NCBI GenBank assembly: GCA_024137785.1
Contig: JAHRHZ010000099.1
Location: forward strand, 4,156,384 to 4,220,383
DNA length: 64,000 bases
Reading direction: 5' to 3'
DNA from: Ginglymostoma cirratum
Lineage: Eukaryota
The position numbers were made by a program, and so were the translations under genes. Shown here piece by piece: positions 2,906 to 58,304 of this stretch. Position 1 is the first letter of the stretch. The number at the start of each line of letters is the position of its first letter. The notes below the pieces were generated by a model, which saw nothing but the letters and a program-made list of their open reading frames with translations, ran no database searches and had not been told where the DNA came from.

Positions 2906-4899
2906 GAAGCTTTTAACCAGGGCAGATTAATAGTTGTAGGGGACTTAATTTTTTATAAGACTGTGTTCTGAAAATCGGTTTGTAGAATACTCTTGTGACA
3001 GTTTTTTTGGAGTGATATTTTATGCAATCAACACAGAATAAAGCTATTTTAGACCTCATATTATGCAATGAGGCAGGACTGATATATAATGTCTTAAAGG
3101 ATTTGCTAGGAAATAGTGATTACATTACAAGTAAACTGCAGATTAAATTTAAAACCACATACTCCAAATACAAACAAGAATCGTGAAGCCAATTGCATAG
3201 GCTTGAGGAGAGAGCTGGTGAAAGTTGTTTGGTGGTAAATAAATTGAGGGAAGCATTTAAAGAAACAACTCAATGTCCAGCAGAAACGTCTGCTATAGTG
3301 AAATAAAAACTCAACCAAAAAGATCAGTCTGTGGCTTACAAAGGAGATTAGATGAATAGGCTATTGATCAAAATAGTCAGATGATTAAGGACTTGGAGCA
3401 TTTTAGAAAGCAACGAGGGCCACAAAATAAAGTCAGTAAGGGAAAATATAGAATGAATAAAATAACTTAGAAAATTAAATTTTTAGAGAACTTACAGTAT
3501 CTAAAAAGGCAGAGAGTAGCTAAATATTGGTATCTTAATGGCAGAGACGGGATAAATGAGGAGCAAGGAAATGATAGTGTGTTTAAACAAATATTTTGTG
3601 TTTTTTACTTTGAGTACTGATACAAGTCACATGCCAAAAACAGCATAACCTAGGGATTGGGTAAGAGTGAGGAAATTAAGGAAATTTTATATCAATTTGA
3701 TACACAGAATAAACATTAGAGGAACTTGGGAGTCTGAAATTTGACAAGTCCTCTGGGCCTCTTGACCTGCCTGCTATGGTTCTCAAACGGACATCTGTAC
3801 AAGTCATGAATGCGCTAGCTGTGATTTTCCAAAAAGTAACTTTCTAAATGGTCCCAGAATTGGAAGTTTGCAAATATAATATCGTTATACAAGAAAGCAA
3901 GGAGAGGGAAAACTGAGAACAACAGGCAATTCAGCCTGCCAACAGTCATCAGGAAATTGTTAGAATCTATTATAATTAAAAAAACATAATAAGATTATGC
4001 CAAATTAACATCATTTTATGAACAGGTAATCCTGTTTGACAAATTTGTTAGCATTTATTGAGGTAATAAGCTAGACACTGAGGAATCAGTAGATATTGTA
4101 GATTTTGATTTCCATTAGGTTAAGGCACAAGGTAAGTGCCCATGGAATGACATATTAGCATGGATTAAAGATTGGGTAATGGTCAGGAAGCAGAAAATAG
4201 ACATAAATCAGGTATTGTCAAATTGATAAGTTGTGATGAATGGAGTGCCATAAGGGCTGTCAGCTGTTTAATGTCTATATTAATGACTTAGACAAAAAGA
4301 CTGAGTAATGCATCTACGTTTGCTGTGACAAGGTGGAAATGCAAGCTGTGAGGAGGACACAGTGGCTGCAAATAGATATAGACAGGTTAAGTGAGTGTGC
4401 ATCAAAATGGCAGATGGAGTGTAAATGTGAGGCTACTCACTTTGGTATGTAAGATTAGAAAAGCAGAATTTTTAAAAGGCATGAAACATATAAACATTGA
4501 TGTTCAGAGGGACTTAGGTGAACTTGTAAAGGAATCTCAAAAAGGTTAGTATGTAGGTACAGTAAACAAATAGGAAAGCTTGGTGGCCCTTATTACAGTC
4601 AAAGGATTTGGAGTACAATGGTAAAGATGTCTTACTATTTGTTGCAAATCCACGGGACTTTGGTGACACCAAAATATTGCATGCTGCTTTGACCTCTATA
4701 GTTAACGAAGGAAGTACCTGCATTGAAGGCAGCACAGTAGAGATTCATCAGATCGGTGCCTAGGATATAAAGGTTGTCCAATGATAACAGGCTGAGTAAA
4801 TTTGGTCCACGTTCTTCCTAGTTTGAAAGAATTGGAGATGATCTCACTGCAACATTTACACATGCAACATGTTTCAAGATTTGAAGGGCGTGATAGTTA

Positions 4900-5221
4900 G
4901 AGTTCTCATAGTCCCAGAAGACGATAGGGCTGCTCCCTCATTAGAGAGAGTTGGTTGGGCATTTAACTTGAGGGTCACCATGCATCAGGCAAGGGGAGAA
5001 GTTGAGAAGGAGAGTCTTTCATGGAACAGAAACAAATTTCTGAAGAAACTCGAAGTGTGGCAGCATCTTTGGAGAGAAAGTAGAATTAATGTTTTGAGTT
5101 GAGAGACTGTTCTTTAGAATACTAACCTCCCTCATTGTAACCTCAGCTGATGTGAGAATGCTGACATCACATTGACATCACTCTGTAACGCAAACCATCC
5201 ATCCAGCCAACTGAGCTAACC
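4900..5221 (-). mobile_element. tRNA-derived SINE (head GGTTAGCTCAGTTGGCTGGA on - strand) carrying a nested PLE-terminus fragment at ~5025-5118
   Basis: A-box-like head; second copy of the same family at 14365-14551. Confidence 0.7.
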
Positions 5222-5399
5222 AGCAGATACTGACAGATTGCTTCTTTTGGCTGGGAAATCTGGAGCAAGGCGTATGGTTTCAGGAAAAGGATACAATGAG
5301 ATTTTATTTACTTCAAGGGTTGGAATTCCAAGAACTATGTCACCATGCCTGATTATTGATATTTCACAATATTCCTGGGTTTTCTGATTGCCTGTCTGA

Positions 5400-5582
<183 letters not shown>

Positions 5583-5624
5583 TAGGATTGGAGGAAACTG
5601 TTCTAGAGCAGTTTGACTCAGTTG

Positions 5625-5782
5625 GGTTAACACAGAGTGGAGCTGGAGGAACACAACAGAGAAAGGGTCCTGACCCGAAACATCAGCTTTCCTGCTCCTC
5701 TGATGCTGCCTGGCCTGCTGCGTTCCTCCAGCTCCACACTGTGTTATCTCAGACTCCAGCATCGGTAGTCCTTACTATCTCT
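5625..5782. mobile_element. PLE-terminus-derived hairpin element with partial hammerhead (stem II + GAAAC)
   Basis: Arms acacagagtggagctggaggaac / gttcctccagctccacactgtgt; central gggtcctgacccgaaacatc. Confidence 0.8.
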
Positions 5783-6119
5783 GACTCAGCTGGGTATTCT
5801 TTAAGTTGTACTTCTATGTGATGAAACTTTGGTCATAGTTCAATCTCAATGAGTACATGTTTTCAAACCTGGGATATTCGCAATGAATTGTTCCTATGAT
5901 GGTGTTCAGCCCTATATTTTATTGTCTGGGTTTACTGCTTTCATACTTCTAGCCTCACTTAAGGATATCACCAAGCAATTATTCATTACAGTTCTAATAC
6001 TGAACAATTTTTCTGTCACTTTTACATGGGATTCTTGTCAGATGCTTTATATTGCACCTTTGTCACATTTCTCATAAATGTCACCAAGCATTGCAAAAAC
6101 AGTGAATTATTTTCAAGTG

Positions 6120-6560
6120 TGGTGACACAGAAAGCTAGCGCACAGGTGCAGCAGGTAATCAGAAAGGCTAATGGAATGTTGGTCCTTATTTCAAGGGTTG
6201 GAATATAAGAGTAAGGAAGTCTTACTGCAACTGTACAAGGTGTTGGTGAGACCACATCTGGAGTACTGTGAGCAGTTTTGGTCCCAGTTTTTGGAGGCAG
6301 TTCATAGAAGGTTTGCTAGAGCAATTCCTGGTATGGAGTGATTGTGTTATGAGCAAGGGCTAAACAGGTTGGGATTCGATTCATTGGAGTTTAGAAGAAT
6401 GAGAGGTGATCTTATGGAAACACACAGAATTCTTAAGGAACTTGACGAGGTAAATGCTGGCAGGCTGTTACCCCTCATGGAAAAATCTAGGACGAGATGG
6501 CACATTTTCCGAATAAAGAGGCGCCAATTTTATTCTGTGTGAAATGAGGATGAGTTTCTC
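6120..6560 (+). mobile_element. CR1 LINE 3' fragment
   Basis: VQQVIRKANGML, LVRPHLEYC, SLEFRRMRGDL motifs. Confidence 0.85.
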
Positions 6561-11825: not shown

Positions 11826-12063
11826 TGGAATTGACAATGAGTTTGTCATGAATGGTAAAATTATGGAGAGTCTAATTTAGAATGAGACAGTGGAGGTGAA
11901 AGAGAATGCAATTAGTGATTTAAGGTATGATAGCCATAATTTTGTGGGACACAAATACAATGGGTTTGGTCTTTATCTGTTTTAACTGGAGCAAATTATG
12001 GCTCATCTAAGCTTTATTGTCAGACAAGTTGTCTTATGACACAAAGGTTGGCAGTGAGATTGT

Positions 12064-12175
12064 AGATATTTTCTAATCAACCTGTTCAGAAATTTTATTA
12101 CGTACCTCTGGAACTGGTTGGACTTGGACCTCCTGGCTCAGATGTAGGGACACTACCACTGTACCACAAGATCTC
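12064..12175 (-). mobile_element. Short (~115 bp) tRNA-derived SINE
   Basis: Reverse complement of the family copy at 24168-24284. Confidence 0.8.
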
Positions 12176-14364
12176 TGTGTAGAGACTATAAACTGAAAAT
12201 TCTGTATACTAACATGAGTTGACTTCATGAATGTCTCCTATAAGTGGACTGCCCATTTGCTTGATTTACACATCACCTGGATATTGAATGCTTTCTCGAG
12301 GACCAATCTGTTTTGACTATTGAGGCATTAATTATATCAAATGTCTGGATGAGAGTCAGCTAACAACTCAATTAAATGATACAGTATTCATTACATTCCA
12401 TTGTATCTTTGCTTACTTGCTGACGGTTCTGTGCACTGGAAGAACTTCTTTAGTCTGTGATAGATACAAGAAGCTAATCATCTAGTTCCAACCTAAATGC
12501 AGATCATTACTGCGAGACAGGCATTTGCAGCAAGATATAACTTGATAAGAAAAATGTACGCACTTATCTTTTAAAAGTTCTTAAAGATTTTATTTTAATA
12601 TCTAGAAACAACAGTTTGAATTTTCAGTTAGAATGAAGAATTGTTATTTTCTTCAGAATTATGTACCACTAATTACCTGAATCTCTTCCAGGCTTTACAT
12701 GCACAATTAGTGGCTTGACAGTTGCAATTGGATTAGCATTAGGAATATAATGCATCTCCTGCCACTCCACTGGGTCAGGATGTCAGTGCTGAATATGTCA
12801 TTGTATGTGGAACTGCAAGTTTGCACCCATTCCGCCAATAAACACGTGCATGTTGTTGCTGATATCATTCTGCGCCTGACGACTGCTGAGTCCCATTTAG
12901 TACCATCCTGGCTGTATGCTTGCCATCCTACGTCCCTGGCCTTCCTGCTCCCCGTTCCTCACTGCCTCCACCATAATGGGCACCCTACTTCCTTACAGAC
13001 AATAACAAATAGCAAGGGAAGAGTGTAACGAGAAACATAGTCAATGAAGCATTGGCAGCTGGATGACCAGGAAAATAGCAAACAAGGTGGCCAAGTTCGA
13101 GTGGGGCAGCAACCAAATTGCAATCCTGAGATTTTAATTGAATTGGTTTGAATTGATATGAAACAGTCACAAAATGGCATTTTGTTGGTGCACTGGCTAA
13201 AATATATTTTATTTGTTTAATGTTACGGGTGGTACTTTTCTTGAATGCAGAAGCTATCTGTAGCATTGCTAGCAGTGCACAGTCACAGTGACTGCTTGGT
13301 TGGTGGGATTGTCGTGGCAGCAAACACAGCATTAGAAATAACAATATTCAGGGCCCAATTAATAAACTAAGACCTCTAAGGAGGACCCAAAGTTTACTTC
13401 TGTCTGCAATTCCAGTCTATATTCCTAACCTTGGGACAAGATGCAGCCTGATGATAAAACGTCTTCATAATTTGCAAACACTTTGTAGTTTACATTTAAG
13501 TACATGTCTGGTTAGTACATTGTTTATAGTGACTGGGCATTTGTTCAACACGGGTGAAATCTATGGCAAATGCTGGACTGCTTGCCTATTGTTTTTACTA
13601 TTAATATTTTGTCTTAAAGGGCAGAGACATGCTTGAAAGTCATCTCTTAGTACAGTAAAGGATGTGTATTTGGAAATGACTTGAAATGTGGCATTTAAGC
13701 GATGCCTTCCATTTCCTTGCACTATAAGATAATATCTTCGAAATCATAGGTACTTAATGGTGTGTTTACAGAAATTGGTGGCTAATGTGTCTCTCTAGTC
13801 TTCTGAAATAGTTTGCAGTTCTTGGTACTTGCAAAATGGAAGAAATTGTAATCTGATAGTCTGCCAAAATGTTAATTTGCTGTCTTGAGAAATTTCATAA
13901 TTTGCAAATACCTTCAGCATGATGCCAGGTTCTATTAGGGCACCCACTATAACTATTGCAGTCTTCAACAATATTTCTGTACAGAAAGCCTCATCTGCCC
14001 CGTTCCAGCTAAAAGGAATATGAAAATCTAATCCTGATTAAATCATTTCAAATTGTCCTTGATAATATGGTCTTGTCCTTCCTGAAGTTCTATGTAATTC
14101 TGTTGAACTCATTTTATGAACCACTGGCTGGCTAATTAAGTTGATGAAAAGCTTGTAAGTATGGTGGCGGTAAATTTGATTTGATGTATCTAGACAGTAA
14201 AGATTTTCAAAATGGTTGACTAATGGAACACGTAATTGATACTACCCATCTTAAATAAAGATCCTATGATATAATATTTTTTGACTTGATGGCTGAAGTG
14301 TAGGAAAATTAACAGGTTTGGCATGAAACGTTTTATGAAATCAAATTTTACTTCATGGGCAAAG

Positions 14365-14551
14365 GTAAGGTCTCCATAGTCCCAGGGGACCACAGGACTG
14401 CTCTTAAATTTGAGAGACACAACTGGTAATGAGTTTAACCTGAGGGGCAAGGTTGAGCAGATGGGACCTTCACAGTGACCTTGGCTGGTACGAGAGTTGA
14501 ACTGTGCTGTTGGCATCACTCTGCATTGTGAACCAGCCGACTGAACTAACC
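14365..14551 (-). mobile_element. tRNA-derived SINE (same family as 4900-5221)
   Basis: Shared catagtccca...tttaacctgaggg...gttgag...ggcatcactctgca...actgaactaacc. Confidence 0.7.
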
Positions 14552-14596
14552 ACCCCCTACCTCATGGGTAATCTAACCTCATCAATACTGTTGTTG

Positions 14597-15700
14597 ATAA
14601 GAACTTAAGAACTAGGAGCAGGAGTAGGCCATCTGGCCCCTCAAGCCTGCCCCGCCATTTAATAAGATCATGGCTGATCTTTTTGAGACTCAGCTTCACT
14701 TACCCCCCCACTCACCATAACCCTAATTCCTTTACTGTTCAAAAATTTATCTAGCCTTGCCTTAAAAACATTCAGCGAGCTAGCTTCAATGGCTTCACTG
14801 GGCAAGGGAATTCCACAGATTCACAACCCTTTGGGTGAAGAAGTTCCTCCTGACCTCAGTCCTACATCTGCTTCCCTTTATTTCGAGGCGATGCCCCCTA
14901 GTCCGAGTTTCACCTGCTAGTGGAAACAACCTCCCTGCCTCCACCTTACCTATTCCCTTCATAATCTTATATGTTTCTATAAGATCTCCCCATATTCTTC
15001 TGAATTCCAATCAGTATAATCCCAGCCTACTCAGTCTTTCCTCATAATCCAACCCTCTCAACTCTGGAATCAACCGAGTGAGTCTCCTCTGCACACCCTC
15101 CAGTGCTAGTATATCCTGTGTCAAGTAATGAGACCAAAACTGCACACAGTACTCCAGGTGTGGCCTCACCAGGACCATATACAGCTCCAGCATAGCCTCC
15201 CTGTTTTTAAACTCCATCCCTCAAGCAATGACAGACAAAATTCTGTTTGCCTTTTTAATTACCTGCTGCACCTGTAATCCTACTTCTGGCGATTCATGCA
15301 CAAGGCTACCCAAGTCCCTCTGCACAGCAGCGTGCTGCAATTTTTTACCATTTAAAATATAGTGCATTTTGCTGTTATTCCTACCAAAATGGATGACCTC
15401 ACACTTATCAACATTGTACTCCATCTGCCAGACTTCTGCCCACTCACTTACACTATCTATATCCCTCTGCAGACTTTCAGTGTCTTCTGCACACTTTGCT
15501 CTACCACTCACCTTAGTGTCATCTGCAACTTGTGACACACCACACTTAGTCCCCAACTCCAAATCATCTATGTAAATTGTAAACAGTTGCGGCCCCAATA
15601 CTGATCCCTGAGGCACGCCACTGGCCACTGACCGCCAACCAGAAAAACACCCATTTACCCCTACTCTTTGTTTTCTACTGGTCAACCAATCCTCTATCCA
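14597..15700 (-). mobile_element. CR1 LINE 3' portion, relatively young
   Basis: ORFs 15221-15763, 15011-15217 and 14795-15010 contain SGVPQGSVLGPQLFTIYIDDL, ADDTK and LVRPHLEYCVQFWS; short tandem tail (taagaac). Confidence 0.95.
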
Positions 15701-16466
15701 TTGATGATTTGACTCACCACTGGAAGTAACAGCCATACTTGTTTTGAAGCCAAGTGAAAACACGTAGCTGCCTCTGAATGGAAGTCACACATGGAAATAA
15801 AATGGCAGAGGTCCATGCACTGACCCTTGCATTACTCCATTCAACATCTTTCATTTCTTCAATGTTCTCTATGCTACTCTGACATTACTTCACAAACTAG
15901 TGAACTCTGGTCTGCACACCTTTGTTCATTTTCCCTGTCTAATCTGGTTTTAAATTGAATACCATAGCCATCCTGGGTATTCATGATTTTTTTTAAGAAG
16001 TGTTTTATCTGGAATATGATGAAGGCTATTTGGAAGTTGAATTGTATCATAAGAATTTCCAAGATCTATCTATAAACTAGTTTCAAAAGAAGACCCAATT
16101 CCCTTCCCAATCCAACTACCCTTATTCTGATTATACAGTTAAAATTTTGCTGTGTTGTAGACGGTGCACTTCCAGTACATTGTTTAGTGGCTTCTTTTAC
16201 TATCTTTTACCATCTATTGGTGTAAGGCCATTTGTTTGTGATTGATTGTCTTGGTCAGATTTGTCCTTTCAAGGCAAGTGCTGTCTTCAGTACTGAGTTA
16301 TTGTTTTTGACTAGACAATGCACAAATTTCTGCCCATGTCTCCTACTCAGCTCCATGCTCAGTAAATGTATGCTGTGTGCCTGAAGGGAATTATTAGTGT
16401 TTAGTCTTCCATCAACTTAGCGAGCATTGCAATAACTGGAAGGCAACATTACCCTATATGTCATAG

Positions 16467-16676
16467 ATAGTAGGAACTGCCGATGCTGGAGAACCTGAGA
16501 TAACAAGGGGTGGAGCTGGAAGAACACAGCAGGACGAGCAGGAACGCTGATGTTTCGGGTCTGGGCCCTTCAGACCCTTTTTCTGAAGAAGGGTTCAGAC
16601 CCGAAACGTCAGCTTTCCTGCTCCTCTGATGCTGCTTGGCCTGCTGTGTTCATCCAGCTCTACGCCTTGTTATCCC
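16467..16676. mobile_element. PLE-terminus-derived hairpin element with intact minimal hammerhead core (16583-16610) and 11-bp TSD
   Basis: CTGAAGA-A-GGGT-TCAG-ACCC-GAAA-CGTC; TSD atatgtcatag at 16456-16466 and 16677-16687; long inverted arms. Confidence 0.85.
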
Positions 16677-16934
16677 ATATGTCATAGTTGGCTTCATGAC
16701 CTTTAACTTAAAAAGACATTGTTTTTCCACAAACCTCATGTAAATGTTGACACTAGGCATTCAGGGATTGGATTGTGGTTTAATTATTAGTTGCCTGCTG
16801 GTAATTATGATGGTTTAGTAGTTGAAAGCATAATATAATACACTGGCATCTCCCAGCCAGTCGCCAATACTTGTGTACTATGTTATCTTATTGATCTCTA
16901 GGTCTTAGTGCAAGAATACCAAGTATGGCGCTCA

Positions 16935-17500
16935 ATTTAAACTGGAGAAATAATTGGTAGAATGAGCTAACATACATTCTCAAAATGGTCATGTTACCAC
17001 TTGTGGAGCCATCAGACTGTACACTTCAGAAGTGAAGAATGTTGATATTTCAGAGTTCAAGCTTAGTGCCAGATTGTGGACAACATTCATGAAAAGGCAC
17101 AATTTAGTACGCTGTCAGAACATAAAAATTTCACAGTGTCTGTCATGTGATCTCCAGAATAAGGAAATCAAATTCCACTGTTTTGCCATCTGAGATAGAG
17201 GGAAGATTCACGAATGATTGGCCTCTATTGAAAATATGGATGCAACAATATACAACTTCAATATGCCAGCAAGCAAGATTGTTGCCAAATGATGGGAAAA
17301 TGGAAACATTCTTTTCAAGATGACTGGTCATAAAAGGAAGAAGTTCATTAGTAATTCCATTTTGCTTGGTAGATTGTACAAAAATAAAGCCAAAGGTGAT
17401 ATTCAAGTGCAAAGTTCTCCCCAAAGAGAAATTTTGAAGAGGTATTGCCACTCTACATGGGAGAGGCTGGATATAGATCAAAGAAGCATGGAATTTGAGA
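16935..17500 (+). mobile_element. pogo-family (Tc1/mariner) DNA transposase relic
   Basis: Hand translation gives LEK*LVE*...QNGHVTT.GAIRL, EFKLSA.LWTTFMKRHNLVR..IKISQ (CENP-B-type HTH) and KMTGHK..F..V...CLVDCTKIKPKVIFK.KVLPKEKF (DDE_1 start). Confidence 0.75.
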
Positions 17501-17719
17501 CCAGGAGGACTATGCAAAGAAAATTTTTTTGTGTCATGTTCAAACCCCATTAGGTGGAAGATGTAATCCACGATGTGAGGCCAACCAATTATTCCTGTTG
17601 TATGACCAAGCCAGCCGTGTTCCTGTGTGAGCTGCTGTTGTGATGAAGGTTGTTGCCACCATCTTTTGAGTTAGAAGCCACAAGGACCTTGCTTTTACGC
17701 TAATATTTCTGCCCTCCAC

Positions 17720-18128
17720 CAGCTACAATGTTCCAATGAAGCAACAATGTGAGCTCATGGAACAGCATCTTATTTTCTGCTCAGTACTTGAAAGCCTCGA
17801 GGTCTCAATATAAAATTTATTAATTCCAGAATCTGACTGCATTATGTCTGTTCTCCATTTTCTTACATCCACCATCTCTCCCCAACCCCACCACGCCCAA
17901 CTATGTCATGTTTGTGTCTTGTTTACTTGCACTTAGCAAAAAGAATTCTTTCCCTTTCACACTTTAATTTACATCCTTTTTACATCTCTTTTCTTCTGTT
18001 CTGATGAAGAATCACCATACTTGAAATAATAAATCTTTTCTCCCCACAGGTCCTGCTGACCTGTTGAGTTTCTCCAGAAATTTCTGTTTTTGTTTCAGGT
18101 ATCCTGCATCCACAGGTCTTTGTTTTAG
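17720..18128 (+). mobile_element. Penelope-like retroelement 3' relic: GIY-YIG C-terminus + pLTR with decayed hammerhead
   Basis: LQCSNEA..ELMEQHLIF...PRGLNIKF resembles the PLE endonuclease end (RKLEEQHLIFRLGTLQP.GLN); CTGATGA at 18001-18007 followed by GAAA. Confidence 0.75.
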
Positions 18129-18134
18129 TTTATA

Positions 18135-19200
18135 CAGGAGTAGGGAGGTTATGCTTAAGGTATGCAGGGCACTGGTGAGATAGCATCAGGAGTAGTGCGC
18201 ACAGTATTTGGTCACCCTATTAATAGAATGTTAAAGATGTTCTGAGTTTACTTCACTAATACCTGTTAGAGGGTGAGTTGTCTTACAAGAAAGGATTGGA
18301 CAGGCTAGGCTTGCATCTGCTGGAGTTTAGAAAAGCGTAGGCAACTTGATTGATAAATAAAATCCTAAATTGTCTTGACAGGATAGGTGTGAAGGATGTT
18401 TCTTATGGAAGGCGATGGAAGTGATGTCATCATATATTTTAAAACTGAGGTAAGTAAATTCCTAAACAGAAACAAAGTGGTAGAGAGACTGAGCAGATCT
18501 GGTGGCATGTGTACAGAGAAAAAGCAGTTAGTGTTTCGAGGTCAGTGAACTTTCTTCAGAACTGAAAGCAGCTAGAAATTTTTGTCTCAGGCCTGCAGCA
18601 GGGCCCCAGCAAAGCTCAACACAAGCTTGAGGAACAATACCTCAGCTTCTGCTGAGATCCATTACCCACTCCCGTACCACTAAGTCCTGTTCTATATGGA
18701 TTGCTCCCAGCACAGCCAATCCATTTTTAACTATTTACACTTTCCATCGGCACCCACTCAGCATTTATCTCCCTCCCCGTTTATCATCAGCAATCACTTT
18801 GTTTTTCCTCTCTGTGGGCACTGTCTCCATCTATTTGACTTACTACTTTCCCCCCACCTGCCATCATCAACATAAATACCACCATTTCCCAGTTGCTTTC
18901 AGCTCTAACCAAGAGTCTCTGGATTCGAAAAATTAGCTGCCTTTCTCTCCACTGATGTTGCCAGACCTGCTGATTCTCTCCAGCACTTTCTGTTTTTGTT
19001 CAGATCTTCAGCTTCCGCAGCTCTTTGTTTTATTTTATTGGATAGATTCTTGTTAGTTAGGGAAGTCCAGGGTTATTGGGGTTAGATTGGAATGTGGAAT
19101 TCAAAACATAAACTGATCTGCCTTGATCTCATGGAAAGGCAGAATAGGCTGTAGGGGACAAATAGTCTACTTATAGAATTGTAGAGTCATACAGCATGGA
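18135..19200 (+). mobile_element. Decayed CR1 3' fragment interrupted by the PLE at 18464-19040
   Basis: actggtgaga..gagtagtgcgcacagt, ctggagtttaga; resumes at gatagattcttgttag after the PLE. Confidence 0.65.
18464..19040 (+). mobile_element. 5'-truncated Penelope-like element with inverted 5' pLTR, GIY-YIG remnant and 3' pLTR
   Basis: 18464-18578 is the reverse complement of 18885-19000; internal FVSGLQQGPSKAQHKLEEQYLSF; hammerhead scaffolds in both pLTRs. Confidence 0.8.
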
Positions 19201-19289: not shown

Positions 19290-20420
19290 GCCTCTTGCAC
19301 CATGTAGTTGCACTGTTGTTGGCTTAATAATGGCTCATTTGCTGATAATATTATAAGGTTTGTACCATTGTCTATCTTGACCATTGACGTAAATATCAGC
19401 TGCCAAAGTGTAAGGTTGGCTCACCTCTTTTCCTCTAGGAATACTTTAGTTCTTTCTTCTGTTGTAGGTTGACTTACTGTATTAAGCTTTTGCATGGGTT
19501 GCTATTTGATTTCTTTGCTTTTCTGAAATTGTGTCCCACGTCTGCACATTACCTTCCATACTAGATTATTTCCAGAAGAGATGTTCACTTTTAGTTGCAG
19601 AGTACTATCTGTGCGTGAGAGATTTCTTTGTTCCACAGTGCTGACAAAGACTTTGTCTAGTGCTTGTCCTAATCACTGTACTGGTTTCTCACTTGTCTTT
19701 TGTGGTTTTATATCTTAAGAATTGAATAGTCTTTGTTGGTCTCCATTGCCAGGGTTGACCTTCTCTCCAATCTATATCGTTGCAGATTTCTGCTTTTCTC
19801 ATCTTTTGAATGGCTTGTTCTAGACTTGGATTTGTTTTAGACAGTAAAAAATCTGACAAAGATTTGTCAGCAAATCCTGTACCAATGTTGTCTCTTTTAA
19901 GTTTCAACTTCAAGTCACGATTATTGAATTTCTCCCCTAATCTGTAGAAATCATTAATGAAATAAACAATGGATTTCCTTGGATGGTGAACTCTTCTGTT
20001 AACTCTTGCTCTTTCAGGAATTTTATTAGTTCTAGGATTTAAATAGTTCTTGAAGGCTTTCGGTACCACTTCAGAAGTATCTGTTGCCTCTTTTACTGCT
20101 TGCGAGTTTTTTTTTCCAGTTGAGTATAGATATGTGCATACTTAATCAGCTTCTGATTTAGTATATAATTTGGAAGCTAGGACTCTTGTGGTGCAATATT
20201 AGTGTCCCACTTCCAGCCCAGAATGCCTGAGTTCAAGTCCCTCATGCTTAAGAAGTGTGTAATAAAATCTCTGAACAGGTTGACAAGAAAGTATCTATAA
20301 TTTGAAAGCTTTTCTGTATCTCAAAAAATTTTCCTAGATTTCCAATTCTGTATTACATTTGGCCCATCTCTGCAATTAAATCTTCTCAGCAATATTATTT
20401 CTGATCCCATGTTTTCCAAA
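19290..20420 (-). mobile_element. Gypsy-type LTR retrotransposon gag/protease relic
   Basis: ORF 19689-20069 (NPRTNKIPERARVNRR..FINDFYRL..RDNIGTGFADKSLS..LEQAIQ) follows the Gypsy gag pattern; downstream DIYVNG..KIDNGT protease-like motif. Confidence 0.7.
20179..20295 (+). mobile_element. Short tRNA-derived SINE with 15-bp TSD, inserted in the Gypsy relic
   Basis: TSD tataatttggaagct (20164-20178) / tataatttgaaagct (20296-20310); B box gagttcaagtcc. Confidence 0.85.
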
Positions 20421-21725: not shown

Positions 21726-23689
21726 CAATGGTCTTCCCTTTAAACCCAGAAATATTTCTCACGGCAAGGTTTATGGGTTAATCTGGTGTGGTTTTCAGCC
21801 ATGTGAGATGTTGAGAGAAAGAGAGAGAAAAACATCATTGAAATGCTTACTCTGTCTTTATCACGCAGAAGGTGGTAGATTGCTTGTGCTCAGATTGAAG
21901 GTCTAAGTTCATGTGGAGTTATGAGAGGCTGGAAGATTTGCCTGGGTTTGAGCTAGATAAAGAAATCTATCGTGTAACCCTTGTAGTGAGAGAATGTACT
22001 TTGAAGTTATCTGTTAGGAAAATATAAAGAATCAAACAACTGAAAACAAGGAGCAAATATGAATTGTTTGTAATTCTGTGGAGACTGATGTGATGAGTCA
22101 AAACGAATCATTCCTTTCTTTATTTTAAAGTATATTGCCTACAGAAGAAAAGCGCTTCATCAGATCTTTTTATGATCACGATATCATGAAAGGTTAAAAT
22201 GTTAAATATTGATGCATCATCCTTTTCAATTGTAAATGAGCAAATCTTTCCTTAAATTATCTGCCTTTATGGATACTGTAACATGCAGTATCAATTGCTT
22301 TTCCTCTACTCGTATGTTTTAGAATTGCTAGTTTGTATGAAACTTACTTTTCTATATTTGCATATCGAATAGGTTTGTTCTCAGTTTTAACTCTCCGTAA
22401 TCAATTGCAGAGCAGAGCTAATCTAACTTCCAGTGTGCTGCCTGACCTCCAATTTTGGCATTGTGACCCGGTTCAACTCCTGTCAACTCTTTTTTGTTTT
22501 TGGGAAGCAGGGTATATCATGATCATTGTTCATGGGCTGGAATGTTATTTCCAGGCGCAGCTGAAAATAACGAACTGCAGTGTTGTATCAGCTGCAGCTT
22601 CAAATTGTGTAGTCCTCTCATGTTTTACTTGCATTTTCAAGTACTGGTTACTATAGTAACAAACTTGTGCACTAGTAGCCATAGCAACGTCAAAGTCAAC
22701 ACTTGAACCTGCTAAATAAAAATTTGAAAATTTTACTTATACAATGCTGCCCAAAAATATTCAGCACTTTGTTGATGGAAATTTTCTTTTATATCTCAAA
22801 ATCGAAGAGAGGGTCCTATTGTTTTTTTTTTTTTGCAGTTTAATCTGGGAGTAGTTCTTAATTTTTTTTATGAATTTGTGGTCATAGCTATTGCTGGTGA
22901 GGCCAGCATTTATTGCTAGTCGCCAGTTGTCCAAGAGAAGGTGGTGTGGTGATCCACCTTGTAGAATTGCTGCTGTCTCTTGAATAAAAATACTCCCACC
23001 GTGCTATTAGGATTAGAGCTCGTGGATTTTGACTTAGCGATTATGAAGGAACAGCAATTACCCTTCCATGTCAGGAGAGTATGTGATTTAGAGGGAGACT
23101 TAAGTGGTGGCATTTACATTCATCTGCTGACCTTATCCCTAATGGATCAGATTGTTGGGACTTGAGGTTCTGTTGAAGGAACTTTGGCAAGTTGTTCAAA
23201 TAGTTCTTATACACGGTGTACACCGTAGCCATGGCACTTCAATGGCAGAGGGAGTGCGTGTTTATGGTGGTTATTAAGGTACCAGTGAGCAAGCTGCTTT
23301 GTGGATGGTGTCAAGCTTCTTGGGTTTAGTTGGAGGTGCACTTATCTAATCAAGTAGAGATTATTTCATCACATGCCTGACTTGTGCCTTGTGAATAATG
23401 GAAAGGCTTTAAGGAATCCAGAGATGAATAGTTTGCCGCAAAATACCTCTGCTCTGAGCTACTGTTGCACGCACAGTATTTGGGTGGCTGGTTAGTTTAG
23501 GTGTTTAGAGAATGGAAACACTCTGGGTGTTGTTGGTAATCCATTAAACATCAAGTAGTGGTTGGACTCCATGTTGAAGATGGTTATTGCTTGGTACATA
23601 AATAGCAAGTAACATTCATGTCACACATGGACGCAATACTGAATGATGTCCAATATTGCTGCATGGCAGCCTGGACTGCTTCATGAGAT

Positions 23690-23880
23690 AAGATCAGCAG
23701 GTATGGCAGCATCTGTGAGGAGAAATCAGAGTTAACGTTTAAGGTCCAGTGACCCTTCCTCAGAACCAGACCCAAAATGTTAACTCTGATTTCTCTTCAC
23801 AGGTGCTGCCAGACCTGTTGAGCTTGTCCAGCAGTCTCCATTTTTGTTTCTGATTTACAGCATCTGTGGGGTTTTTTTTC
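23690..23880. mobile_element. PLE-terminus-derived hairpin element; - strand hammerhead scaffold at 23727-23767
   Basis: Inverted arms cagcaggtatggcagcatctgtgaggagaaatcagagttaac / gttaactctgatttctcttcacaggtgctgccagacctgttg; - strand CTGAGGA-A-GGGTC-ACTG-GACCT-TAAA-CGTT. Confidence 0.8.
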
Positions 23881-24027
23881 CAGTTTTTTTTCGCTGCATA
23901 AAGCATTGGCAAAGAAATAACATTCTGGAGCCATCAACTCCACTTCTTCCTTATATAATGGTAACAAATTTCACTCATAAAGCAGCTCAGATATTTGAGA
24001 TTAGGACATTTATCCTAAGGAATTTGA

Positions 24028-24395
24028 TGACTCTTGTGGTGCAGTTGAAGTGTCCATACCTCTGGAACAGGACACCTTCATTCATATCCTACCAGCTCCA
24101 GAGGTATGTCATGATCCTGTCTGAACGTGTAGGTTAAAAATATGTACGATCAATAATGTTCATCTTGGGGATCTTGTGGTGCAGTAGTAATGTCCCTATC
24201 TCTGTACCAGGAGGCCCAGGTTCAAGTCCCGCCAGCTGCAGAGATGAGTGATAACATCTCTGAACAGATTGATTAGAAAATATCAATTGTGACACACTGT
24301 AGCAACATTTCTCCCTCTGAGCCTAGAGGCAGAGCTTCAAGTTCCATATGCTCTGAATGTGTTTCATAACATGTTCAAATAGATTGATTAAAATA
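24028..24395 (+). mobile_element. Cluster of three head-to-tail copies of the short tRNA-derived SINE
   Basis: Copies at ~24028-24145, 24168-24284 and 24292-24395 share tcttgtggtgcag...ttcaagt...ctgaacag.ttgatta.aaaata. Confidence 0.85.
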
Positions 24396-26992
24396 ACTTG
24401 GAACGAATTGGAGGTGCGCACCTTTGGAATTCCTTTGGCATTGTTCTTGGGCTGAGTTGGTTGACTTCCACAATCACAACCATTGCCCTTTGTGTGATAG
24501 TTCCATGTAATGGAGAGTATTGCATCAATTCCCATTGTCTTCTGCTTTTATTAGGGTTCCCTAATGTAACATTCAGTTAATTGCTGCCTTGATATCAAGG
24601 GTAATTATTTTCCCCTCCCTTCTGAAATTCAGCCTTCTTGTCCATGTTTGAATGAAGGCTGTATTGGGGTCTGGAGCTACATGGCTTGGATGGAAATCAA
24701 ATTGAGCTTTAATTGACCAGCTTGTTGCTAAGTATGTGTGGCTTGATGGCACTGTCAATAACAAGGTTTACTATTTTAATGATGTTTGGGTAGACAGTAT
24801 ATACCCAGGCACGTTTCCACATTCTTGACTAGGTTGCAATGTTGCTGCTGCACTGGAACAACTTGACTAAGGCTGTAGTTGGTTCTTGAGCACAAATCTT
24901 TAGTACACATTTGAGCTGGGGTCAGGGTGCAAAGTCTCTGCTATGTCTATTTCTTTAAAACCATTTCTTGGTAGTTTGTGGCATGAATCAAATTGTCTGA
25001 ACGCTAGGATATGTGATAGTCAGGACCTCGGGAGGAAGCCAAGGTTGATTATTCACTGCTGGCTGGAGATGGTGTCAAAGACTTTAACCTTGTCTTTAGC
25101 ATTAATGCGGTGGTTGCAGCTGTCATTGAGTAGGGAGCTGCTTTTGAGCTGACTCCTGGGTACAGTATAATTGTCTGTCACTATTTGTGACTAGATATGG
25201 CAGGCTGCCAATCTTTATCTATCTGTTGGTTGTGGGATTATTTCAAATCTGTCTATAGCATGCTTCTGTTGTCTAGCATGCATGTAGCCTGGTGTTGTAA
25301 CTTCACTACACTGGCACCTCATTTTTGGGTATTCCTGATGTAGCTTCTGGCATGCTTTCCTATAGTCCTCATGGAACCAGGATTGGTCCTCTAGCTTGAT
25401 TGTAATGGTAGAGTGAGGGATATGCCGTGCCAGGAGATTATAGACTGTGGTTGAGAAGCACACAGAGAATTGGTTGTCTACAGCCAAAATTCAGCTTGTC
25501 TCACCCCCTGCCGTTTTCCAATAATCCGGCAATTTTTAAAATGTCTTCAAATGTTTATTCAATTCCCCTTCAAACACCATAACTGAATCTGCTTCTACCA
25601 CCCTGCTAGTCAGTGTATACAAAAGTGTTCTCATGTCTCCTTTAATAACCCTAAACCAATGTCATGTGGCAAGAGTGGATCAATTTGAGCCTTTGGGCCT
25701 CCTCTGCCATTCAATAAGATCATGGCTGATCTGATTTTAACCTCACATTTGAAGTGCTGAATTGTCTTGTTCTCCCATAGGTGTATTCCTGCTGCAACTT
25801 TCCATCTCTTTCCCAGGCCCATTCCCAATAATGGCTCTATCTGCCAGTGGTACTTTAATTCGATATCTCTCAACTTGCTTTCTTACATTTCTATTCTTGG
25901 ACTAGGCTTTGTCTCCTATGCCCCCTCTCACTTAACTGTTATTATTTTTACACAATTTACAATCATATTCCAAATGTTTAAGCTTCTCTAACTGATACTG
26001 TCTATCATCTATCTGAAAACCTGTCATGGCGCTATTACAGTTAAACCTGGAACTACTTTCAACAAACAATCTGAGAAGACTCTATTGCAACTTTCACTTC
26101 TCCCCATCAAATTCCACACTTCTTCTGTCTCTACATGCTTCTGATTGCAGATGGTACATAATGCACATAATCAAAATTTACTAATTACAATAATAGTGAA
26201 ATTAAGGAAGTGGAGAGAACATGAAATAATACTTGTTACTCTGTTACTAAATGCAGTGCACTAAGTGACTCCATGAGCCCGTAGAATGAATGTAATGTTA
26301 GATTTCTTAAAATAAGTGTGTTTCATCTGAGTAAGCTGTCTATCCTGATATGAAAATATGAGCAGTGCTCTTTTCGATTAGATTCACGTTCAACAGGGGG
26401 AAACTAGGGACCACAAAACAACCAATACAGACATTTGTTATTTGCACATAGAAGTTAGCCTCCAAGATGAAAATTATATACCTTCACAAAGTATGATTAC
26501 TAGGAAAGAATGGTTATTCTGTCTGGTTTGCCAGGTGTTTGGGATGCCATCATTATTTGCATAAAAGTGTTAACTGTAGCTTGATGAACTATTCAAATTC
26601 CTCGTAAGGATGTTTGTTTCATGTTATTACAAGAGTTAGTTACTCTTAAAACTAGTTAGTCTATAAACGTGACCATTTTAAAATCTATTTTGAGCTTCTC
26701 ATGAAAGTTCACATGCCTGAAATTAATTCTGTTTTAACCTTTTATACCTGCTCCCAAATTTGCTGATTTATTTTCATCATTATCAGTTTTATTACAGATT
26801 CTTAGCATTCATAGTAATTTGCTTTTGTGTTGAACTTCTGTTTTCACCTTTTACAAAGGGGTGAGGGTCTTTTTTTTAAATTTAATTCTGTACTTTTTAA
26901 CTAGTTATCAATATTTCTCAGTGATTTGAGGATGCTGTTCTCCTTTCTGCACTTCACTAGCCTTTGTGCTTTCTTTCTCCTACTTTCAACAG

Positions 26993-27163
26993 GAGTTCCA
27001 TGCTCAAATGGAGGAAATGGAGGTAACTGTACGACAGCTGGAAGAGGATCTTGCTGCTGCCCGTCGACGAGCTGACCTCTATGAGTCTGAACTCCGGGAT
27101 ACTCGAATTACAGCAGATGAGTATAGGCGGAAAGCAGCTGAATCCCAGCAGAAACTACAGAAG
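26993..27163 (+). CDS. CIT: CIT exon (57 aa, [10 protein letters not shown]...[12 protein letters not shown]...QQKLQK), phase 0/0
   Basis: Long pyrimidine tract + caacag acceptor, gttggt donor; [19 protein letters not shown] motif. Confidence 0.95.
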
Positions 27164-27783
27164 GTTGGTCTGTGTATCTGCCCGAACAATGAGTGAGTGT
27201 GAGGTGGAATGTCTGCCAAGCTGATGAATTGGAATGTTACATACCGAGGAACCTGAGATGCTGAGAGGTTATTGACATTTCATAAACAGGAGGGACTGTC
27301 ACAGTGACAGGATGTACATTTTACACCGTGATAGTCATGCTTGAGTTAAGATTAACTAAGTTCCTAGCTGAAATCTAGACGCTACTTAGCTGCTTCTCAT
27401 TCTCACTAGGTTGGGTATCTTAACTTCCTTGTAGTTCTCGAAGCATTCATCATGACAGATGGTAGACTTGGGTGAAAATAAACTCATGCACTCCATATGC
27501 TGAAGGTCTTTACATATTCTATAATAAACATCTTTTGAGGTTAGTCAGCGACTGTACCATGTCACCTATTGAACTTTGTTTCTATTTTTGGCTACTTACT
27601 TTGTTTTGAAAGCCTAGCAATGTGTATTGTGTTTTGTGTATTTTTATATTATTTATCGTTATGGAGCAATTCTGCTCAAATTTTAAGAATGGATTCTGTG
27701 CAGTATGATCATTTGTAAGGGGACAGAGTCCATACACCATTTCGATTCAAGTCACTGACATCAAGACTGTATTCCATTCACAG

Positions 27784-31659: not shown

Positions 31660-31800
31660 TAAAAACAAAGAATGCTGGAGAACCTAAGCGCGTCTGGCAG
31701 CATCTGTGGAGAAAGAAACAAGGAGAAAGTCCAATATGACTTTTTCAGATTCTAAGCTTTTATTTCAGATTTCTCGCATTGGCAGTATTTTGCCTTATTG
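31660..31800. mobile_element. Decayed PLE-terminus repeat
   Basis: aatgctggagaacc..gtctggcagcatctgtggagaaagaaac; same family as 475-640. Confidence 0.65.
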
Positions 31801-32460: not shown

Positions 32461-32673
32461 GAGAAAGGAAGAACTGCAGATGCTGCAGTCCGAGATAACA
32501 CAGTGTAGGGCTGGAGGAACACAGCATGCCAGGCAGCATCAAAGGAGCAGGAAAGTTGACATATTGGGTCAGGACTCCTTTTTCTGAAGAAGGGTCCCGA
32601 CCCAAAACGTCAACTTTCCTGCTCCTCTGATGCTGCCTGGCCTGCTATGTTCCTCCAGCTCCACATTGTTAGC
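32461..32673. mobile_element. PLE-terminus-derived hairpin element with 11-bp TSD; hammerhead core with G12>A
   Basis: TSD tcttgaactcc at 32450-32460 and 32674-32684; CTGAAGA-A-GGGTC-CC-GACCC-AAAA-CGTC at 32584-32611; ~90-nt inverted arms. Confidence 0.85.
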
Positions 32674-34859: not shown

Positions 34860-36775
34860 GTAAATTAAGGATAAAAGAATGACTAGGGAAAAAATAGAGC
34901 CTATTGAGGACTTCATTGATTATTTGTGAATAGAAGCAAAGGACATGGATAGGGTTCTAAATGAATACTTTGTGTCATTGCTCATTACTGAGACGGATGA
35001 CGTGGATACAGAAATCAGGGAGAAGAGCTTTTATATACTTAAAGAAGTTAGCGTAGACAGAGGAGCTTCTGAATGGTCTCGTAGGCTTAAAAGTAGATGA
35101 GTATTCAGGGCCAGGTGAAATGTATTTCAGGTTATTGAGTAAGGTAAGTCAGGACAGTAGCAAAAACTTTCAGTTCCTCTCTGGCCACAGAAGAGGTATC
35201 AGAGGATGGAGGATCTTCAGTGTGGTCCCGTTATTCAAGAAAGGAGGAAGGGATAAACCAGTAAGCTACAGGCCAGTTAGTCTAACCTCAATGCTAGAGG
35301 AACTATTGGAAGCAATTCTGAGGGACAGAATTAATCTGCGCTTGGAGAGGCAGGGATTAATCAAGAACAGTCAGCATGGTTTTGTTAAGGGGAGGCCATA
35401 TCTGACCAACTGGTTGAATTTTTCAGAGGTGACCAGTCTGCAAACAAGGGAATACGTTCGATGCAGTCTACTTGGACTTAGGCAAGGCTTTTGATAAGGC
35501 CTCGTGTGGGAGACTGTTAGCAAAGATAAGGGTCCATGGACCCATGGAAATTTCACAAATTGGATCCAGAATTAGCTAAGTGGCAAGAAGCAGAGGGTGA
35601 TGGTCGAGGGGTGTTTTTGTGATTGGAAGCCTGTGTCCAGAGGGGTTCTGCAGTGTTGGAGCCCTTGCTGTTTGTAGTTTTTATAAACGATTTAGACTTG
35701 AAGGTCGGAGGACTGATCAGTAAGTTCCTGGATGATACAAAAAAATTGGTGGAGTGGTAAATAGTGAGGAGGATCGCCTTAGATTATAGAAGGATATAAA
35801 AAGGGTGATTAGATGAGCTGACGAGTGGCAAATTAAATTCAATCCAATAAACATGAGGTGATGCACTTGGGCAGTACAAACAAAGCAAGGGAATACATGA
35901 TGAACAGTAGGATCCTGGGAAGCACCAAGTATCAGGGGGACCTTGAAATGCCTGACCATGATCCCTCAAGGTAGTGGGATAGGGAGATAAAGTAGTAAAG
36001 AAGGCATTTGGAATACTTGCCTTTTATTAGCCGAGGCATAGAATTTAAGAGCAGGAGGGGGTTGCTTGAACTATATGAAACATTGGTTAGGCCACAGCTG
36101 AAGTACTATGTGTAGTTCTGGGATTCACATTGCGGAAGGGATGCGATTTCACTAAAGAGGGTGCAGCGGAAATTTACCAGGACATTGCTTGGGACTGGAG
36201 AGTTTTAGTTATGAAGAGATATTTGGACTGATTGGGGTTGACTTCCTTGGAGAAGAGCGGTCTAAAAGGAAACATGATTGAGATATATAAATTGAGGGGC
36301 ATAGACAGAGTGGACAGGAAGGAACTTTTCCTCCATTGACTGATCAATGACCTCAGGGCATAGGTATAAAGGAAAGGGCTGTGTGGTTCAGAGGGGATGT
36401 GAGGAAGTTTTTTTTCACTTAGTGGTGGCAGTCTGAAACTCTGTGCTTTCAGTGGTGGTACAGATAGAAACCCTCAACATTTAACGATTTAGATGTTCAC
36501 TTGTGACACCAAAGCATACAAGGCTATGCTGGCAAATGGGTTTATCATAGTTGGATGGTTGTTTTTGACTGGTGCAGTCCCTGCACTGTAGACCTCTACA
36601 TTGGCAAAGATCTGTAGCTTGGGTTGTGGCTGAGGTTGTTGACTTGCTCGCTGAGCTGGCTTGTTCTCATTCAGACATTTCATCACCGAGCATGGTGAAG
36701 AAACATCTGAGCGAGAACAAGCCAGCTCGGTGAGCAAGTCAACAACCTGTAGACGTCTATGGCTATGATTCTGTT
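34860..36775 (+). mobile_element. CR1 LINE, 5'-truncated, decayed
   Basis: VVPLFKKGGRDKPVSYRPVSLTSM..SQHGFVKGRPYLTN; DDTK; LVRPQL.Y; tail ctatgattc. Confidence 0.92.
36599..36746. mobile_element. Third-family PLE-terminus hairpin element with 13-bp TSD, inserted in the CR1 tail
   Basis: Arms aggttgttgacttgctcgctgagctggcttgttctc / gagaacaagccagctcggtgagcaagtcaacaacct; centre tcacc-gagcat-ggtga-agaaacatc; TSD ctgtagacctcta (36586-36598) / ctgtagacgtcta (36747-36759). Confidence 0.8.
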
Positions 36776-43040: not shown

Positions 43041-43175
43041 AGTTAGGATACAAGATTCAGTCTGGTAATGATAAAAATACACTAATTCAGTGTAAATCTG
43101 TGGTAAAATCAGTACAAATTGCAGCAAATGTTGATGATAGCTATATTAAAGTTGCATTTTTATATCATTCCACAG

Positions 43176-43373
43176 GCCAGCTTGGAACATGAGCAACAGA
43201 AATTGGAACTGAAGAAACAGGGGAATGAATTGCAATTAGCCTTGCAGGAGAAGGAGGCTCAGATTAGGAGTCTGCAAAGCACAAAAACTGCCCTGGAGAA
43301 CCAATTGCAAATGGCCAAAGCAGAGCTGGAAGAGACGACTGCTGAGGCAGAGGAGGAGATCCAATCTCTGAGG
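43176..43373 (+). CDS. CIT: CIT exon (66 aa, [15 protein letters not shown]...[17 protein letters not shown]), phase 0/0
   Basis: ttccacag acceptor, gtcagt donor; [14 protein letters not shown] identical to mammalian CIT. Confidence 0.96.
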
Positions 43374-43817
43374 GTCAGTCTCACCATCATGATGATCAAA
43401 GTGCAGGTTGATACCACCCACTTATTTTTGGGAGACTCCCTGATGAAGTAGTTTGAGATTCTGGAAAGCTGTGTAGTCGGAGGAAGAGTGTAATTTTCTG
43501 TTGTTGTGAAGTAACCAAGGAAACGATCAGCTTCTAAGCAAGTTCTTTAAATAATTCTATGGGCATGACATGATTATGAAGTGAATTTTAACAAGAGCTA
43601 CCTTTTCCAGTCTGTGTCTGAAACCACTCTGACATTTCAGGCAGACAGTCACTGAATTGCTGCTTTGCCCAAATCTAAATTGACACCCATGCACTGTCTC
43701 ATGTAACAGTCATCCTTTATTAACTCTGCTTTGTGCATTCTGATAGAGTGAATGCTACTCTCAAGCTTCTACTGTTTAGTTATATAATCACTGTAGTGCA
43801 GTTTGTTTATCATATAA

Positions 43818-49476: not shown

Positions 49477-49674
49477 GTTATTTCAGATCTGGAGGAACAG
49501 TTAAACCAATTGAGCCAGGAAAATGCTGAGCTGAACAACCAGAATTACTACCTGACCAAGCAGCTGGAAGAGTTGTCTTGTGTTGGAGATGAACGAGCCC
49601 AGCTCCGGCTGGAAATGGGCAGGATGCGCCAGGAGCTGTCCGACCAAGAGCTCCAGCTCAGTAACCAAAAACAG
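49477..49674 (+). CDS. CIT: CIT exon (66 aa, [30 protein letters not shown]...QLSNQKQ), phase 0/0
   Basis: caatag acceptor, gttagt donor; matches [30 protein letters not shown]. Confidence 0.95.
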
Positions 49675-49927
49675 GTTAGTACACACCTGTTGATTAATTT
49701 ACCTCTATGTGCTTTTCAATGTTCTATCTTTTTATCAGGCCTACTGATATAACCTTTTTAAAAATATTACTATAAATATTGATACAATGTTAATATAATT
49801 CACACATATATAATATCAACTATTATTAATTTAACATGTCTGCGTTGTACCACCAGAGTCTGAGTTTTTGTGCTTGGGTATTTGGGACAGCTTGGTATTG
49901 ACTTAAAGATTAGAAAAACTTCAGGTT

Positions 49928-52138: not shown

Positions 52139-52332
52139 ACAATCGAGACACTGAAGACAACCTGCTCAATGCTGGAGGAGCAGGTGATGGATCTGGAGAC
52201 ATTGAATGATGAGCTTCTTGAGAAAGAACGGCAATGGGAAACCTGGAAAGCTGAATTTGAAGAAGAAAAAACACAACTTGAGCGACGCATCCAAGAAATG
52301 AAGAAACTACTGGATATTGAAAAGCAGAACAG
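52139..52332 (+). CDS. CIT: CIT exon ([34 protein letters not shown]...DIEKQN+AG), phase 0/2
   Basis: tctctctcag acceptor, gtactg donor; [28 protein letters not shown] conserved. Confidence 0.96.
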
Positions 52333-58172: not shown

Positions 58173-58304
58173 GATTTCTGATGAAGAGTCTAGGCCCGAA
58201 ACGTCAAGTTTTCCTGCTCCTATGATGCTGCTTGACCTGCTGTGTTCATCCAGCCCAATGCTTGTTATCTCGGATTCTCGAGCATCTGCAGTACCTATTA
58301 TCTC
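58173..58304 (+). mobile_element. Single PLE terminus with intact minimal hammerhead core, inserted in the Gypsy element
   Basis: CTGATGA-A-GAGTC-TA-GGCCC-GAAA-CGTC at 58178-58205, followed by the family body ttcctgctcctatgatgctgc. Confidence 0.85.

Follow-up and report, generated by a model that had tools for sequence, protein, structure and literature searches.

The question raised by this locus is whether two short, decayed coding stretches, each followed by a copy of a dispersed hammerhead-bearing repeat, tie that repeat to the GIY-YIG endonuclease of a Penelope-type element (PLE). We propose that both relics are, very probably, old, 5'-truncated and inactive insertions of an endonuclease-positive (EN+) PLE of the Neptune type, lying in an intron of a host gene. 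Assignment to the Neptune clade is probable and indirect, since the linker lies outside the part that the relics retain. Neither relic retains any reverse transcriptase (RT), both being truncated downstream of the RT region. Within the window (the whole stretch of 64,000 nucleotides that was analysed), the relics and their immediate surroundings are laid out as follows.

About 17702 to 18133, + strand: relic 1 as a whole, an ORF end plus a terminal repeat.
17702 to 17836, + strand: relic 1, decayed coding remnant for the C-terminus of a GIY-YIG endonuclease of a PLE, the 5' limit being approximate.
17837 to 17995, + strand: relic 1, 3' untranslated stretch, pyrimidine-rich in sequence and placed, like its counterpart in the retrieved PLE loci described below, after the stop and before the hammerhead.
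17996 to 18035, + strand: relic 1, minimal type I hammerhead scaffold in which the first box (CTGATGA) is preserved and both U16.1 and stem I have decayed.
18036 to 18095, + strand: relic 1, remainder of the type A terminal repeat, by repeat alignment.
18096 to 18133, + strand: relic 1, 3' tail of about 38 nt, by comparison of type A copies.
18134 to 18464, + strand: left part of the host of relic 2, a 3' fragment of a CR1-like LINE whose related copies in the window adjoin RVT_1 remnants.
18451 to 18464, + strand: probable target-site duplication on the left of relic 2, agreeing with its right counterpart at 8/14 positions, all differences being transitions.
18465 to 19038, + strand: relic 2 as a whole, an insert within the CR1-like LINE.
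18465 to 18579, - strand: relic 2, inverted arm, which repeats the hammerhead and terminal repeat of the element's 3' end without the tail, by repeat alignments.
18525 to 18564, - strand: hammerhead scaffold of the inverted arm, with the CTGAAGA box preserved, 5/5 pairs in stem I, C in place of U16.1 and a weak stem II.
18575 to 18652, + strand: relic 2, remnant of the GIY-YIG ORF end, 26 codons, matching relic 1 at 44/75 nt in register.
18653 to 18899, + strand: relic 2, 3' untranslated stretch, pyrimidine-rich in sequence.
18900 to 18939, + strand: relic 2, hammerhead scaffold of the direct copy, with stems I and II preserved and a broken first box (CTAACCA).
18940 to 19000, + strand: relic 2, remainder of the type A terminal repeat, mirrored in the inverted arm, by repeat alignment.
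19001 to 19038, + strand: relic 2, 38-nt tail of the direct copy only, lacking in the inverted arm.
19039 to 19052, + strand: probable right target-site duplication of relic 2, by overlap in LINE register.
19039 to 19171, + strand: right part of the host LINE, matched at E 2.6e-13 by a profile built on six other copies in the window.

Relic 1 reads NISALHQLQCSNE from about 17702, then QCELMEQHLIFC after a +1 break at 17744 and, after a back-shift near 17783, ST, a stop, KPRGLNIKFINSRI and a final stop; its lesions are the break at 17744, a -1 break at 17783/4 and a premature TGA at 17789-91, and the terminal TGA lies at 17834-36. In contigs of a relative an extra G is present behind 17783 (2, 2, 1 and 0 contigs in four runs), where the second frameshift of relic 1 is needed. 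The sequence-only reading of this DNA had taken ELMEQHLIF and PRGLNIKF as one peptide stretch from 17720 onwards. Both are present (17751-17777 and 17795-17818), in separate frames and with the TGA at 17789-91 ahead of PRGLNIKF, and the coding remnant begins earlier, at about 17702. A by-eye extension of the ORF to about 17650 was not significant and was rejected. Upstream of the relic, positions 16960-17570 (+) hold a decayed, frameshifted reading without Pfam support, which we take to resemble a pogo-like DDE transposase.

Direct protein comparison was silent throughout. Word-index protein searches with the relic peptides were blank, relic 1 was without a match in the atlas or the PDB, a Pfam search of 88 window peptides gave no match on either relic, and the sole match in a representative-protein search, a repetitive unrelated protein, was discarded. 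Because all of these were blank, metagenome contigs were scanned with a degenerate 17-codon motif of relic 1, in which ten residues were specified at positions picked from relic 1 itself, guided by expected conservation. At least 120 metagenome loci matched, and by inspection all translated matches belong to one family. Pfam GIY-YIG was matched by six of the 11 longest ORFs among the loci listed (E <= 0.0017), three of them at the gathering score; hmmsearch over whole six-frame translations proved too insensitive. In one locus (L003) a 595-aa ORF combines RVT_1 (E 5.4e-5), a CxxxxCxxC linker and GIY-YIG; against a eukaryotic GIY-YIG cluster its C-terminal part has a score of 0.97. The Cys-rich linker between RT and endonuclease is found in L003, L014, L065 and L008, and the combination of RT, Cys linker and GIY-YIG is the layout of Neptune and Nematis elements (PMC8557442). 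The codon motif had no match in viral contigs, and a 28-nt motif of the repeat none in viral or metagenome contigs. P0003 had no PDB match; pairwise BLASTP to P0003 and L014 was blank, and the profile pair probability was 3%.

In the window itself the codon motif has a single match, at 17760-17809 with one base missing, against an expectation by composition of 6e-6. A frameshift-aware profile likewise gave relic 1 the highest score of the window, 28.9 bits, which was reached by one of 25 null windows and by 0 of 1000 local shuffles. This score is partly circular, since masking the ten motif columns took away its significance (248/1000 shuffles). The proposal that relic 1 is a GIY-YIG C-terminus stands through the loci that its motif retrieved, and comparison with PLE proteins, the check suggested along with it, gave blanks when done directly and GIY-YIG ORFs when done through the motif.

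For relic 2 the same identity is reached by way of relic 1. Against the retrieved ORFs it was not significant (547/1000 shuffles; 43/500 at best) and BLASTP was blank, and yet the two relics, placed in codon register by eye, share 44 of 75 nt, where the maximum in 10,000 shuffles was 34. At one codon relic 1 has TGT and relic 2 CAC, the two forms that an arginine codon takes on through CpG decay; most retrieved ORFs carry a basic residue there. Positions 18575-18655 translate as EIFVSGLQQGPSKAQHKLEEQYLSFC and a stop, with AQHKLEEQYLSF at 18614-18649; beyond this the frame is lost, the last conserved motif is unrecognisable, and at its start the remnant overlaps the inverted arm by about 5 nt. 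A tail fragment at 18574-18600 in place of the ORF was rejected, its match to the type A profile being only E 2.7. The peptide could also be a chance reading, and the insert unrelated DNA caught between inverted pLTRs, a kind of capture that has been described (PMC3846280). We consider this very improbable: it would accommodate the missing direct score of relic 2 against PLE proteins and the untranslated stretches, whose likeness between the relics is not significant (169/1000 shuffles), but it sits poorly with the agreement in register, with relic 1 being the best non-self tblastn match of the relic 2 peptide in the window (E 0.024), and with the repetition of the segment in the relative. In each of the four runs, related contigs lack 118 nt of the relic 2 untranslated part, at 18742-18861; these are length variants within the family.

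Both relics end in the same terminal repeat (18037-18133 against 18942-19038, 78.6% over 98 nt), which bears out the claim that each is followed by a repeat with a hammerhead scaffold. This arrangement recurs in the retrieved loci, which are distant and have in common with the window repeat only the hammerhead. Among the matches listed, a hammerhead core in sense orientation follows in 34 of the 69 with 400 nt downstream, as against none in antisense, and in 33 of these 34 it lies 71-158 nt past the motif. Its form is that of the window repeats, with a first box, an extra A, a short stem II, GAAA-CGTY and a short stem I. An inverted upstream copy of the locus's own 3' end was found in 12 of 75 matches (10 loci) with 300 nt on each side, and a direct upstream copy in one of the 75, again among the matches listed; the distance from the motif to the inner end of the inverted copy is 200-2250 nt. 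The layout of relic 2 is therefore common in the retrieved PLE family. As a separate observation, L003:1005-3663 holds an almost complete PLE of Neptune type, whose 5' end bears an inverted hammerhead arm of 129 nt. After a one-sided extension of 50 nt, L111 and L040 show target-site duplications of 12/12 and 11/12; both are head-to-head insertions whose two arms extend to the ORF end, and L111 is young enough for its arms to be compared.

Relic 2 opens with the inverted copy reported by the earlier reading at 18464-18578, which we place at 18465-18579. Its minus strand from 18564 to 18525 reads CAGTT-CTGAAGA-(15 nt)-GAAA-CACT-AACTG with 5/5 stem I pairs, as had been described. The arm mirrors the direct copy at 18886-19000, the two being 83/115 identical (in the repeat alignment, 71% over 114 nt against 18891-19003), and the inverted repeat ends 38 nt before the right end of the element. 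A MITE or DNA transposon was rejected on this account, and because the ORF is the end of an endonuclease and not a transposase. Nor do the two arms appear to be of different age (17/93 against 25/92 positions at which they depart from what most other copies have; Fisher p 0.16). The published PLE unit consists of an ORF end, a pLTR, a shorter inverted pLTR, an optional tail and a duplication (PMC3846280, PMC8557442), and the earlier remark that an inverted, truncated pLTR is typical of PLEs agrees both with this layout and with the retrieved loci.

We suggest that the tail asymmetry reflects the way in which the element was inserted. In vitro, the PLE protein of an anole, from a Poseidon-clade element, cuts and extends both target strands, and its reverse transcription starts at two sites that bound the tail; a dimer is predicted (PMC11167929). 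Extension of two strands from two start sites would yield 3' ends that face outward, a tail on one side only, and head-to-head arms of unrelated length. In relic 2, the GIY-YIG domain would have cut the two target strands about 14 bp apart, and the RT would have primed cDNA from the element's 3' end, extending both cut strands. The first cDNA would have begun at the outer start site, with the tail, and run about 460 nt into the ORF end, and the second at the inner site, without the tail, for about 115 nt, and the two would then have met head to head over a few bases common to both. The short type A hairpins described below would be the product of the same event with both cDNAs short. That the inverted arm came from second-strand priming rather than fold-back, that it was joined by microhomology, and that the hairpins form a continuum with the relics, is what we infer from this arrangement.

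The same PLE could instead have acquired its inverted arm by fold-back or self-priming on a single nucleic acid molecule, as has been proposed for inverted PLE copies (PMC3846280), and we regard this as possible but less likely. The two arms of relic 2 agree at 40/59 positions in the hammerhead region, where other window copies reach at most about 64% over fewer columns, and where they meet they have about 5 nt in common, both of which would suit fold-back. Yet the arm stops at the tail boundary, which matches a known RT start site, and not at the end of the element, and both target strands are extended in vitro (PMC11167929); the relics are too decayed to decide between second priming and fold-back. 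A bolder form of second-strand priming, in which a dimeric enzyme primes a separate cDNA on each target strand for the two ends of a head-to-head PLE insertion, possibly from two RNA molecules, is offered tentatively, and we would rate it as rather unlikely. The arms of relic 2 differ by one compensated stem I pair (C-G against U-A), which fits a two-RNA origin and fits old neutral decay as well.

The LINE around relic 2, which is CR1-like, is interrupted by it: when both flanks are set against the copy at 14500-15260, the end of the left flank and the start of the right flank cover the same 14 host positions. The left flank is weak (E 0.05 to the six-copy profile; 2/300 shuffles as high against one copy), and at 8/14 identity the duplication is not significant by sequence alone. 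Across the window, clear duplications accompany four of the 11 elements tested, one of type A and three of type B. Relic 1 adjoins the LINE fragment on its 3' side; neither an inverted arm nor a target-site duplication was found for it with the type A profile and flank comparison. The possibility that both relics are one partial-tandem insertion was rejected, the LINE fragment lying between them and resuming beyond relic 2. Single-depth contigs of the relative, about 96-97% alike, span the 5' side of relic 1 and the inner junction of relic 2, so that both insertions are shared, and old. The window, at 35-44% GC, contains many LINE remnants, with Pfam RVT_1 matches at 10819, 15224, 35057 and 44650, and its repeats are reminiscent of a cartilaginous fish. 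The relics are intronic, as short coiled-coil exons on the + strand flank them, each lying between AG and GT:

694 to 835, + strand: coiled-coil exon of the host gene.
26990 to 27170, + strand: coiled-coil exon of the host gene.
43175 to 43375, + strand: coiled-coil exon of the host gene.
49477 to 49675, + strand: coiled-coil exon of the host gene.
52140 to 52335, + strand: coiled-coil exon of the host gene.

The peptides of these exons are reminiscent of citron kinase; a search of the PDB with a host coiled-coil exon gave no match.

The hammerhead in the terminal repeat is of the minimal type I and lies in sense to the ORF. Two scaffolds with an intact first box and a stem I of at least 5 are present in the window, against a mean of 0.075 and a maximum of 1 in 40 shuffled windows. 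Over 11 hammerheads (nine from the window, two from the loci), 77% of stem I/II cells are paired, a figure that none of 500 shuffles reached; slid registers pair 11-50%, and the structure was itself chosen from these sequences. No Rfam hammerhead model matched in the window, where nine sub-threshold miRNA-like matches fell on hairpins, and the monomer folding z-scores of all six hammerheads computed were unremarkable, as is expected of minimal motifs. All three relic hammerheads carry core lesions: U16.1 is changed to A and stem I reduced to 2 bp in relic 1, G5 and G8 are altered in the direct copy of relic 2, and U16.1 is changed to C in its inverted copy. Judged by these changes, none of the three should cleave. 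Hammerhead activity is reported lost on a G8C change (PMC11167929).

Metazoan PLEs are known to carry minimal hammerheads with a helix I of 4-5 bp, an extra base after position 9 and no helix III, also as opposite-strand pairs 100-700 bp apart, and dispersed motifs have been ascribed to truncated PLEs (PMC4209133). Beside the hammerheads of Cervera and de la Pena 2014, the pair in relic 2 lies about 350 bp apart, and all three relic copies are lesioned. The type A and type B hairpins of the window considered here are the following:

472 to 650: type A hairpin.
23686 to 23888: type A hairpin.
31661 to 31796: type A hairpin.
5628 to 5784: type B hammerhead hairpin.
16465 to 16677: type B hammerhead hairpin.
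32462 to 32673: type B hammerhead hairpin.
58172 to 58307: type B hammerhead hairpin.

The type A hairpins end internally at different profile positions, and the + side of 31661-31796 holds little beyond the tail, as is expected of random truncation. Of the five type A arms in the window that lack a tail, four stop no more than about 4 nt from the tail boundary at which the inverted arm of relic 2 ends, and the fifth (23686) stops about 20 nt early. The suggestion that the short hairpins are extreme truncations is thus supported for type A, by the repeat shared with the relics, the tail asymmetry and the variable centres. Type B, three of whose members have 12/13 duplications, is another subfamily, without an ORF link in the window, and may by analogy be a truncation product too. 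In three type B hairpins the + copy starts a few bases ahead of the first hammerhead box, which suggests a preferred 5' stop; that at 58178 has a complete core.

Alternatively, the short hairpins might be a self-propagating, non-autonomous family, retrozyme- or MITE-like, on which PLE enzymes act in trans, a reading that we find unlikely. Abundance is what speaks for it: summed contig depth in the relative over four runs is about 2e5-6e5 for type A and about 1e7 for type B (some 25 times as much), while bins of the ORF remnants draw only 200-260 and 3400-6500, depth being no copy number. Two type B hairpins have similar centres (16575-16600 and 32577-32600), and animal retrozymes are reported to derive from pLTRs (bioRxiv 10.64898/2026.07.22.740005). 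Depth, on the other hand, is very sensitive to divergence, as the relic 2 inverted arm draws only about 200-300; the window contains no direct tandem arrays, and inner ends vary among the four two-armed type A elements. Non-LTR retrozymes (bioRxiv 10.64898/2026.07.22.740005) resemble the relics in their type I hammerhead and derivation from a PLE terminus. They are, however, direct tandem repeats with at least two complete hammerheads, whereas the relic copies are single or inverted, have damaged cores and carry ORF remnants, and the relics were accordingly not classed with them.

Truncation of a PLE remains our preferred reading for the relics and type A hairpins alike, and the structure is already published, the relics being ordinary dead PLE stumps of probable Neptune type. 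With the canonical EN+ unit as described by Arkhipova et al. (2013) and Craig et al. (2021) they share a GIY-YIG ORF end (in relic 1, and probably in relic 2), a hammerhead repeat, an adjacent inverted and 5'-truncated copy (in relic 2), a tail of 30-40 bp at one end and heavy 5' truncation; a short target duplication is probable at relic 2. They differ from it in retaining only the last 26-45 codons and in having no upstream direct pLTR or partial tandem, and the probable duplication of relic 2 is 14 bp, as against 8-10 bp in the rotifer examples given. L003, as a Neptune-clade PLE, shares the C-terminal motif, the minimal hammerhead past the stop and the upstream inverted arm, but is distant, and its linker is not retained in the relics; in relic 1 the hammerhead lies 191 nt from the motif end, against the 71-158 nt of 33/34 retrieved cases among the matches listed. 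The relic motifs were not found in the text of the Craig 2021 supplement (PMC8557442), nor EQHLIF in the full text of the papers searched. A PLE expansion has been noted in a shark (10.1101/443036); the literature searches found no paper specifically on these hairpins in sharks, and the family may already bear a Repbase or Dfam name.

Through the relics, a hairpin repeat that is very abundant in this genome is tied to the element from which it stems, which is useful for repeat annotation, and the finding bears on how PLEs make their inverted 5' ends. The hairpins should not be mistaken for microRNA precursors, given several sub-threshold miRNA matches.

Some further repeats were observed in the window. 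Decayed copies at 26694-26820 (+) and 21838-21896 (+) match the type A profile weakly (E 8.6e-5 and 0.16). A third hairpin family, at 36633-36748 and without a clear duplication, has 55-nt arms that are 87% complementary, and its centre holds GAAACATC, half of a hammerhead-like motif. Another dispersed repeat (families D1, D2 and D8) lies at 20165-20294, 24031-24398, 50135-50402, 54266-54319 and 12034-12176; in places it forms tandem pairs 115-140 nt apart, and it looks SINE-like.
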